The notes beneath the pieces are model-generated. The model was not told where the DNA came from and searched no databases. It worked only from the letters and a program-made list of their open reading frames with translations. From Octopus vulgaris (taxonomy: Eukaryota), in the NCBI GenBank assembly GCA_951406725.2, contig OX597840.1:29574001-29638000 (forward strand): a stretch of DNA of 64,000 nucleotides, read 5' to 3'. Of this stretch, positions 2,117 through 2,176 are shown one piece after another. Within the stretch, counting starts at the first letter, position 1. Every line of letters starts with the position of its first letter. A program made the translations under genes and the position numbers.

Positions 2117-2176
2117 TGCACTGAAGAGCATAGAATGCATATTCTGCATTGATTGCGAAATCACAGGTGATATGTA
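2117..2176 (+). ncRNA. Type I hammerhead ribozyme
   Basis: tgca-CTGAAGA-gca...aatgca/tgcatt...tgc-GAAA-tcacaggtga-TA-tgta. Helix III is identical to the HHR at 45689-45750, and the downstream 2180-2420 resembles 45900-46010 reversed. Confidence 0.75.

Follow-up and report, generated by a model that had tools for sequence, protein, structure and literature searches.

Inherited compensatory changes in the hammerheads of a non-coding octopus repeat family are evidence for selection on the ribozyme fold

Two related hammerheads in one window

The window analysed here, a 64,000-nucleotide stretch of the Octopus vulgaris genome (contig OX597840.1), contains three type I hammerheads in a descriptor scan of both strands: one at 2117, one at 45689 and an unrelated one at about 1074–1166. 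The motif at 2117–2176 on the forward strand reads TGCA CTGAAGA GCA..TGC GAAA TCACAGGTGA TA TGTA, and that at 45689–45750 on the reverse strand reads AGTCTTG CTGATGA GTAC..GTAC GAAA TCACAGGTGA TA CAAGACT. Motifs of the repeat family to which these two belong carry the type I hammerhead core CUGANGA, GAAA and UH in order, with helix I open. All letters singled out by a first-pass annotation of this DNA, a common GAAA-TCACAGGTGA-TA with A versus U at N7, are present at both motifs. Their homology is independent of the ribozyme letters because the flanks (76% over 178 nt and 79% over 115 nt) and the whole spacer align.

Table 1 Features of the two related hammerhead copies in the window
Feature	Position	Strand	Remark
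Type I hammerhead, subfamily A	2117..2178	+	Cleavage predicted after 2172 (AUA)
Subfamily A helix I remnant	2117-2120 with 2173-2176	+	3′ strand extends as far as 2178
Subfamily A core CTGAAGA	2121-2127	+
Subfamily A helix II	2128-2130/2154-2156	+
Subfamily A distal hairpin	2134-2139/2145-2150	+
Subfamily A GAAA	2157-2160	+
Subfamily A helix III	2160-2163/2168-2171	+
5′-truncated single-arm copy of ~487-bp subfamily A monomer	2117..2416	+	Between (TA)n tracts; 'long' fixed 3′ end
Type I hammerhead, subfamily B	45683..45755	-	Cleavage predicted between 45696 and 45695
Subfamily B helix I	45744-45750 with 45689-45695	-	GAAT/ATTC may form a distal helix I
Subfamily B core C3	45743	-
Subfamily B helix II GTAC/GTAC with distal hairpin	within 45683..45755	-
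Circularly permuted full subfamily B monomer	45560..46057	-	~479 nt plus ~20 nt terminal redundancy; 'short' fixed 3′ end
Inverted snippet, 47 bp	45500..45546	+	Derives from sequence immediately upstream of the subfamily B ribozyme; faces main arm tail to tail, adjoins (TA)n

The first-pass annotation had further described helices I and II as divergent between the motifs and still paired in each. Helix I does differ and pair in both, but the four pairs at 2117 are a truncated remnant: a (TA)n tract cuts the element off 4 nt upstream of the core, and intact subfamily A copies read GAGTTCGTTGCA, so that the parent helix I is GTTGCA/TGTAAC, with six pairs. Helix II also pairs in both and is doubly changed at pair 2, but the motifs agree at pairs 1 and 3, and at pair 4 the 2117 motif has U·U where the 45689 motif has C-G. 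A distal helix II hairpin, missed in that annotation, is present in both motifs. Set in register, the two are doubly changed at helix I pairs 1–4 and helix II pair 2, five of the seven jointly formable pairs. Neutral simulation at the spacer divergence of 0.29 gave five or more double changes in none of 17,135 outcomes with all seven pairs intact, as compared with 4 of 3,345 at a rate of 0.45 and 75 of 1,032 at a rate of 0.60.

The Rfam model RF00163, which has 45 positions and shorter loops than these motifs, scores 45690–45749 at 17.4 bits against a cut-off of 34 and has no match to the 2117 motif at E ≤ 10. No hammerhead is among the 150 of 206 Rfam matches listed for the whole window, which are microsatellite-type noise. 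The minimum-energy folds of both motifs differ from the active fold. In the third hammerhead (1074–1166, forward strand), helix II is long and helix III is short and palindromic; it comes from a different and older family of repeats (43 matches among 40 scored candidates, 76–87% identity). Two short, imperfect inverted repeats of the hairpin type can be seen by eye between (TA)n tracts at 1670–1790 and 1915–2015, a little upstream of the 2117 copy.

A dispersed family of non-coding monomers

Across the 2.8-Gb genome we found 862 exact matches to the helix III 17-mer and at least 2,055 matches to an anchor downstream of the ribozyme, with no match for either reversed control. The repeat unit is a non-coding monomer of about 480 bp with a GC content of 0.33–0.34, and neighbouring units are spaced at 459–495 bp (51 adjacent-unit pairs). 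This organization, tandem non-coding monomers some hundreds of base pairs long that each carry a type I hammerhead, is that of a non-LTR retrozyme. Subfamilies A and B are 71% alike over the whole spacer outside the ribozyme. Sampling without the helix III pattern yielded further subfamilies with AG, TG, T, G or A in loop 3 and A or C at position 17, all with the stem unchanged. A search that loosely allowed a different first helix III pair returned 101 matches, compared with 33 for the reversed control; members of this family among the 101 are single mutated copies.

The longest run described here is an array of 31 units of 481 bp (G000:C1:64,640,550-64,655,003; loci L319 and L320) with only 10 variable columns, the usual 3′ end of the family and an inverted arm before the array; some of its variants are common to non-adjacent units. 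Contigs from three runs presumed to be RNA cover the monomer in part, a kind of evidence that cannot show strand, ends or circles. At locus L036 (650–2061), two different subfamilies adjoin within one (TA)n region. Elsewhere a subfamily A monomer carries a 1.7-kb insertion with zinc-knuckle-like frames and a 17-bp flanking duplication (L061 3504–5181 and L063 4572–6250); the two frames of it that we tested gave no Pfam match.

For phylogenetic analysis, 465 anchored sites were reduced to 331 distinct ones, of which 298 could be parsed; the other 33 are mostly truncated at a junction, and at least two have helix III deletions. Enough flank was available for 210 copies, and three core-deletion and four indel copies were removed. 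The final set comprises 142 independent copies, one per locus, each with at least 230 spacer letters, and the tree was built without the ribozyme. Sampling is biased to contigs C1–C3 and to relatives near the 2117 and 45689 copies. Dropping broken copies is expected to make the contrast between inherited and private changes smaller, not larger. The spacer-only tree is ladder-like, and ribozyme types fall mostly into clades or grades.

Inherited changes keep the helices paired

The first-pass annotation took the divergence between the two motifs as internal evidence of selection on the ribozyme fold in the parent elements, and made this reading hinge on significant covariation in a larger alignment. 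We tested for such covariation with tree-aware nulls. Counts were made by branch, as automatic cutting of the tree into lineages gave fragments; a change on an internal branch (three or more copies) was scored as inherited and one on a terminal branch as private. At paired sites in the 142 copies, inherited changes keep the pair 34 times and break it 11 times, whereas private changes keep it 30 times and break it 60 times (P = 4 × 10^-6). There are 15 cases in which both partners changed on one internal branch, where permuting the partners gave 3.6 ± 1.8 (0 of 20,000 permutations) and matched spacer columns gave 3.6 (p about 10^-4). The result held in all ten re-runs, namely with all copies, with a stricter branch size, with a bulged lineage left out, with just the 76 copies that the helix III pattern had not retrieved and on six bootstrap trees: each gave 11–16 same-branch double changes, a number never reached in 5,000 permutations. 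Covariation is thus significant in the larger alignment, and the proposal of selection in the parent elements is borne out, in that inherited changes keep pairs and private changes, which follow insertion, mostly break them.

Individual pairs were scored with our own R-scape-like G-test (not R-scape itself), whose tree-shuffled null is slightly conservative. Seven of 22 pairs reached E < 0.05 (I1, I2, I3, I5, II2, IIb2 and IIb3), and II2 and I1 ranked first and third among all pairs of the 453 columns. We also hand-picked 31 real representatives and aligned them by sequence only. In these, 96.4% of cells are paired and double changes occur at 13 of 20 pairs, a result reached in none of 500 shuffles, a control that ignores relatedness. 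The double changes fall at all six helix I pairs and at seven of the ten pairs of helix II and the distal hairpin. Helix III has none because it is invariant at all four pairs. RNAalifold recovers helices I–III from the representatives unaided and does not recover the distal hairpin. G·U intermediates persist as subfamilies, and steps can be followed along the spacer tree at I4 (U-A, U·G, C-G), II4 and IIb6. Together these observations are good evidence that the fold was under selection in the parent lineages.

Conservation of the core and folding of the whole monomer

Over the 11 core sites we observed two inherited changes where 14.4 were expected (P = 0.004). Both belong to one U4C lineage, gained and lost on the tree. 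The ratio of inherited to private changes is not significant for the core (P = 0.38) or for helix III (P = 0.20). The U4C subfamily, with a CCGATGA core, has spread to several loci (L081, L108, L110, L120, L126 and others), and U4C is also present in copies of another branch. Pair 10.1-11.1, which closes helix II, is G-C in both window copies; among the 31 representatives it is G-C in 15, A-U in six, G·U in three and unpaired in seven.

In six monomers folded as circles, the predicted probability of helix III is 0.00–0.38. Isolated helix III is predicted to form no hairpin and to pair as a duplex with a second copy at -9.6 to -14.4 kcal/mol, a prediction compatible with the dimer cleavage described in the accessible text of PMC4209133. 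Predicted folds that pair the core to helix III or to the upstream strand had suggested an on/off switch; these pairings vary among lineages and U4C is uncompensated, and the switch is not supported.

Beyond the ribozyme, the circular fold beats shuffled sequences in all nine monomers folded (z from -2.3 to -12.3; 20 shuffles each), and a consensus fold of eight monomers has 114 pairs, 27 of them with double changes. At 71 spacer pairs shared among single-sequence folds, changes keep and break pairs 42:25 on internal branches and 96:184 on terminal branches, with seven co-changes against 1.5 expected (p = 0.0007). Two of six single-fold tests by spacer permutation were not significant, and only one of the 71 spacer pairs passes the per-pair test.

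Insertion structure and the RNA template

To describe how the copies are inserted, we read the ends of segments at 192 loci. Of 255 3′ ends, 232 lie 120–159 or 240–279 nt after the predicted cut and 221 are followed by (TA)n; 5′ ends are scattered, and only 4 of 255 fall at the cut site. Head-to-head inverted pairs are present at 99 loci, 88 of which combine the two classes of 3′ end. Of the 192 loci, 88 contain one full monomer or more, and 239 of 318 segments run through the predicted cut site. Fixed 3′ ends, 5′ truncation, partial tandems, inverted copies, a tail and a microsatellite target, all hallmarks of Penelope-type mobilization, are present in the family, and the insertion pattern is compatible with a Penelope-mobilized non-LTR retrozyme that was likely copied from circles. 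A linear monomer that has been cut could not serve as template for segments that run through the cut site; we therefore infer a ligated circle or, as a second choice, a homogeneous multimer, with priming at two sites.

With a probability of roughly 0.8, we read the two motifs as the hammerhead-shaped parts of two subfamilies of one non-coding retroposon of about 480 bp, whose parents kept helices I and II paired by compensatory changes, likely because self-cleavage was required for making the RNA template, probably a circle, that a Penelope-like reverse transcriptase would copy into (TA)n. Tandem copies would be transcribed, and the ribozyme, predicted to cleave site-specifically, would cut out unit-length RNA, probably as a dimer through the palindromic helix III. 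A host ligase would close the unit-length RNA. Reverse transcription, primed by the target and in many cases by both of its strands, would begin at two AT-rich sites, which lie about 140 and about 255 nt past the cut, and would carry on across the ligated junction, in some cases many times over. New subfamilies would arise only from templates whose fold worked, and copies would decay once inserted. A bolder version, which we put forward tentatively, would make the family a fossil record of a viroid-like RNA circle in an animal genome, with the whole 480-nt fold under RNA-level selection, twin priming at two fixed sites on one circle, and helix III frozen as a dimer seal that lets multimers cut and spares monomer circles.

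The strongest competing account, which we regard as unlikely, keeps selection on the fold and replaces the circle with an uncleaved or partly cleaved linear multimer from arrays, the ribozyme serving only to free the RNA from host read-through transcripts. Long arrays such as the 31-unit one exist, with some variants common to non-adjacent units, and a homogeneous linear multimer would also account for segments that run through the cut. Slow cleavage may be tolerated, to judge from weak helix pairs and U4C, and a minority of insertions mix units that differ by at least two lineage variants (14 of 92 tandem pairs and 25 of 152 arm pairs). Yet units within one insertion mostly have common lineage variants, and polymorphic differences within insertions are far below those between loci (0.07–0.19 versus 2.15 per 100 sites in subfamily B). 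The near absence of 5′ ends at the cut also speaks against a linear template, and in mussel and other retrozymes the RNA occurs mainly as circles according to the accessible text of PMC7229834.

Search for a Penelope partner

Penelope-like elements with an intact 781-amino-acid frame encoding reverse transcriptase and GIY-YIG domains are plentiful in the genome. One that is abundant and apparently young (L255 1244–6460) combines this frame with an upstream frame and identical terminal repeats of 504 bp, in which the canonical hammerhead descriptor found nothing. Among 30 of 148 listed GIY-YIG matches, mostly of one family, no autonomous Penelope element was linked to the monomer. On contig C13, copies spaced 2.2 kb apart proved to be separated by another insertion and not by a Penelope open reading frame.

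These searches bear on an improbable account in which the monomer is the pLTR of an autonomous Penelope element and was selected there, the scattered copies being 5′-truncated fragments. Its architecture is like that of Penelope-like elements as described in the accessible text of PMC8557442, and retrozymes resemble pLTRs in Xenopus in the part available of a preprint (10.64898/2026.07.22.740005). Against it, no arm at the 192 loci runs straight into a Penelope open reading frame (two same-strand neighbours are decayed, with unrelated sequence between), the sequence upstream of copies is more monomer, and the likeness of the abundant 781-amino-acid element to the monomer is confined to 67 AT-rich nucleotides at 69%.

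Other origins of the matched changes

Recombination that swapped ribozyme modules between co-active subfamilies could have inflated a few independent events into many apparent compensations. Some states do arise repeatedly on the tree (I1 twice, II2 three times), and mosaics are plausible for retroposons. We give this account little credence: 13 different pairs are doubly changed, each with at least one origin, the stepwise G·U paths at I4, II4 and IIb6 track the spacer tree, and a swapped module would move non-partner columns too, which partner permutation allows for.

Inverted repeats are known to be corrected by DNA-level palindrome repair or template switching, and the element is stem-rich, but an origin of the matched changes in DNA-level repair of imperfect palindromes or in template switching is largely refuted: private changes mostly break pairs (60 of 90), the four terminal double changes carry states of other lineages, the unpaired core is likewise conserved, G·U states persist in whole subfamilies, and at spacer pairs read on the ribozyme strand G·U exceeds A·C by 19:3 among inherited changes and 71:54 among private ones (P = 0.009), a bias that indicates selection on RNA and that DNA-level repair would not produce.

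Relation to known systems

The element class has been published before, as has covariation between the hammerhead families of a genome. By its genomic sequence, the octopus family is a metazoan non-LTR retrozyme as this class is characterized in the accessible text of Cervera & de la Pena 2020 (PMC7229834): members are non-coding, low in GC (33–34%) and highly self-paired, have one type I hammerhead per monomer and range from dimers to long arrays. That work proposed Penelope-like mobilization and a circular template for metazoan retrozymes and showed RNA circles and cleavage, whereas the octopus family is known here from the genome; at 459–495 nt its monomer is also longer than the 170–400-nt RNAs reported in the accessible text. 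In the octopus family we could in addition read two fixed 3′ ends, inverted arms, a (TA)n target and a subfamily phylogeny.

Cervera & de la Pena 2014 (PMC4209133) noted compensatory changes between the hammerhead families of a single genome and doubted, in the text accessible to us, that DNA-level mutation plus selection would suffice. In the octopus family, by contrast, stepwise G·U intermediates are preserved as subfamilies. The octopus motif differs from the hammerheads in Penelope-like pLTRs described in the same accessible text: it is unattached to an open reading frame, and it is not a minimal hammerhead because it has a four-pair helix III and a six- to seven-pair helix I. In the freely accessible article texts searched, we found no description of the octopus family or of a tree-aware test.

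A 2026 preprint (bioRxiv 10.64898/2026.07.22.740005) argues for a Penelope origin of non-LTR retrozymes, and its accessible part describes co-occurrence with Penelope-like elements, dispersed monomers and local multimers, as in octopus. It favours local tandem amplification, names no mollusc among its classes and contains no test of selection on the fold, as far as that part goes. In Xenopus, one of nine predicted retrozyme dimers was cleaved according to the same part of the preprint. In contrast to the pLTR relationship proposed there, we found no pLTR homolog of the octopus monomer among the 30 of 148 listed GIY-YIG matches, mostly of one family.

The accessible text of PMC8557442 calls it unclear whether retrozyme or Penelope mobility depends on the hammerhead or whether the ribozyme is a passenger. 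The confinement of pair-keeping to parent lineages is evolutionary evidence that the fold is needed, and the evolutionary record of the octopus family is unusually clean. Its subfamily ladder supplies a natural set of successive compensatory changes, including G·U intermediates, a U4C core and closing pairs that are broken, which could be assayed side by side, and with priming sites that are fixed the circle-template model can be tested directly. Octopus copies resemble the EN+ Penelope-like elements of PMC8557442, as far as its accessible text describes them, in 5′ truncation, partial tandems, an inverted 5′-truncated copy, a tail at one end and microsatellite targets; they differ in a monomer without coding capacity and in a tail of about 115 nt, against 30–40 bp.
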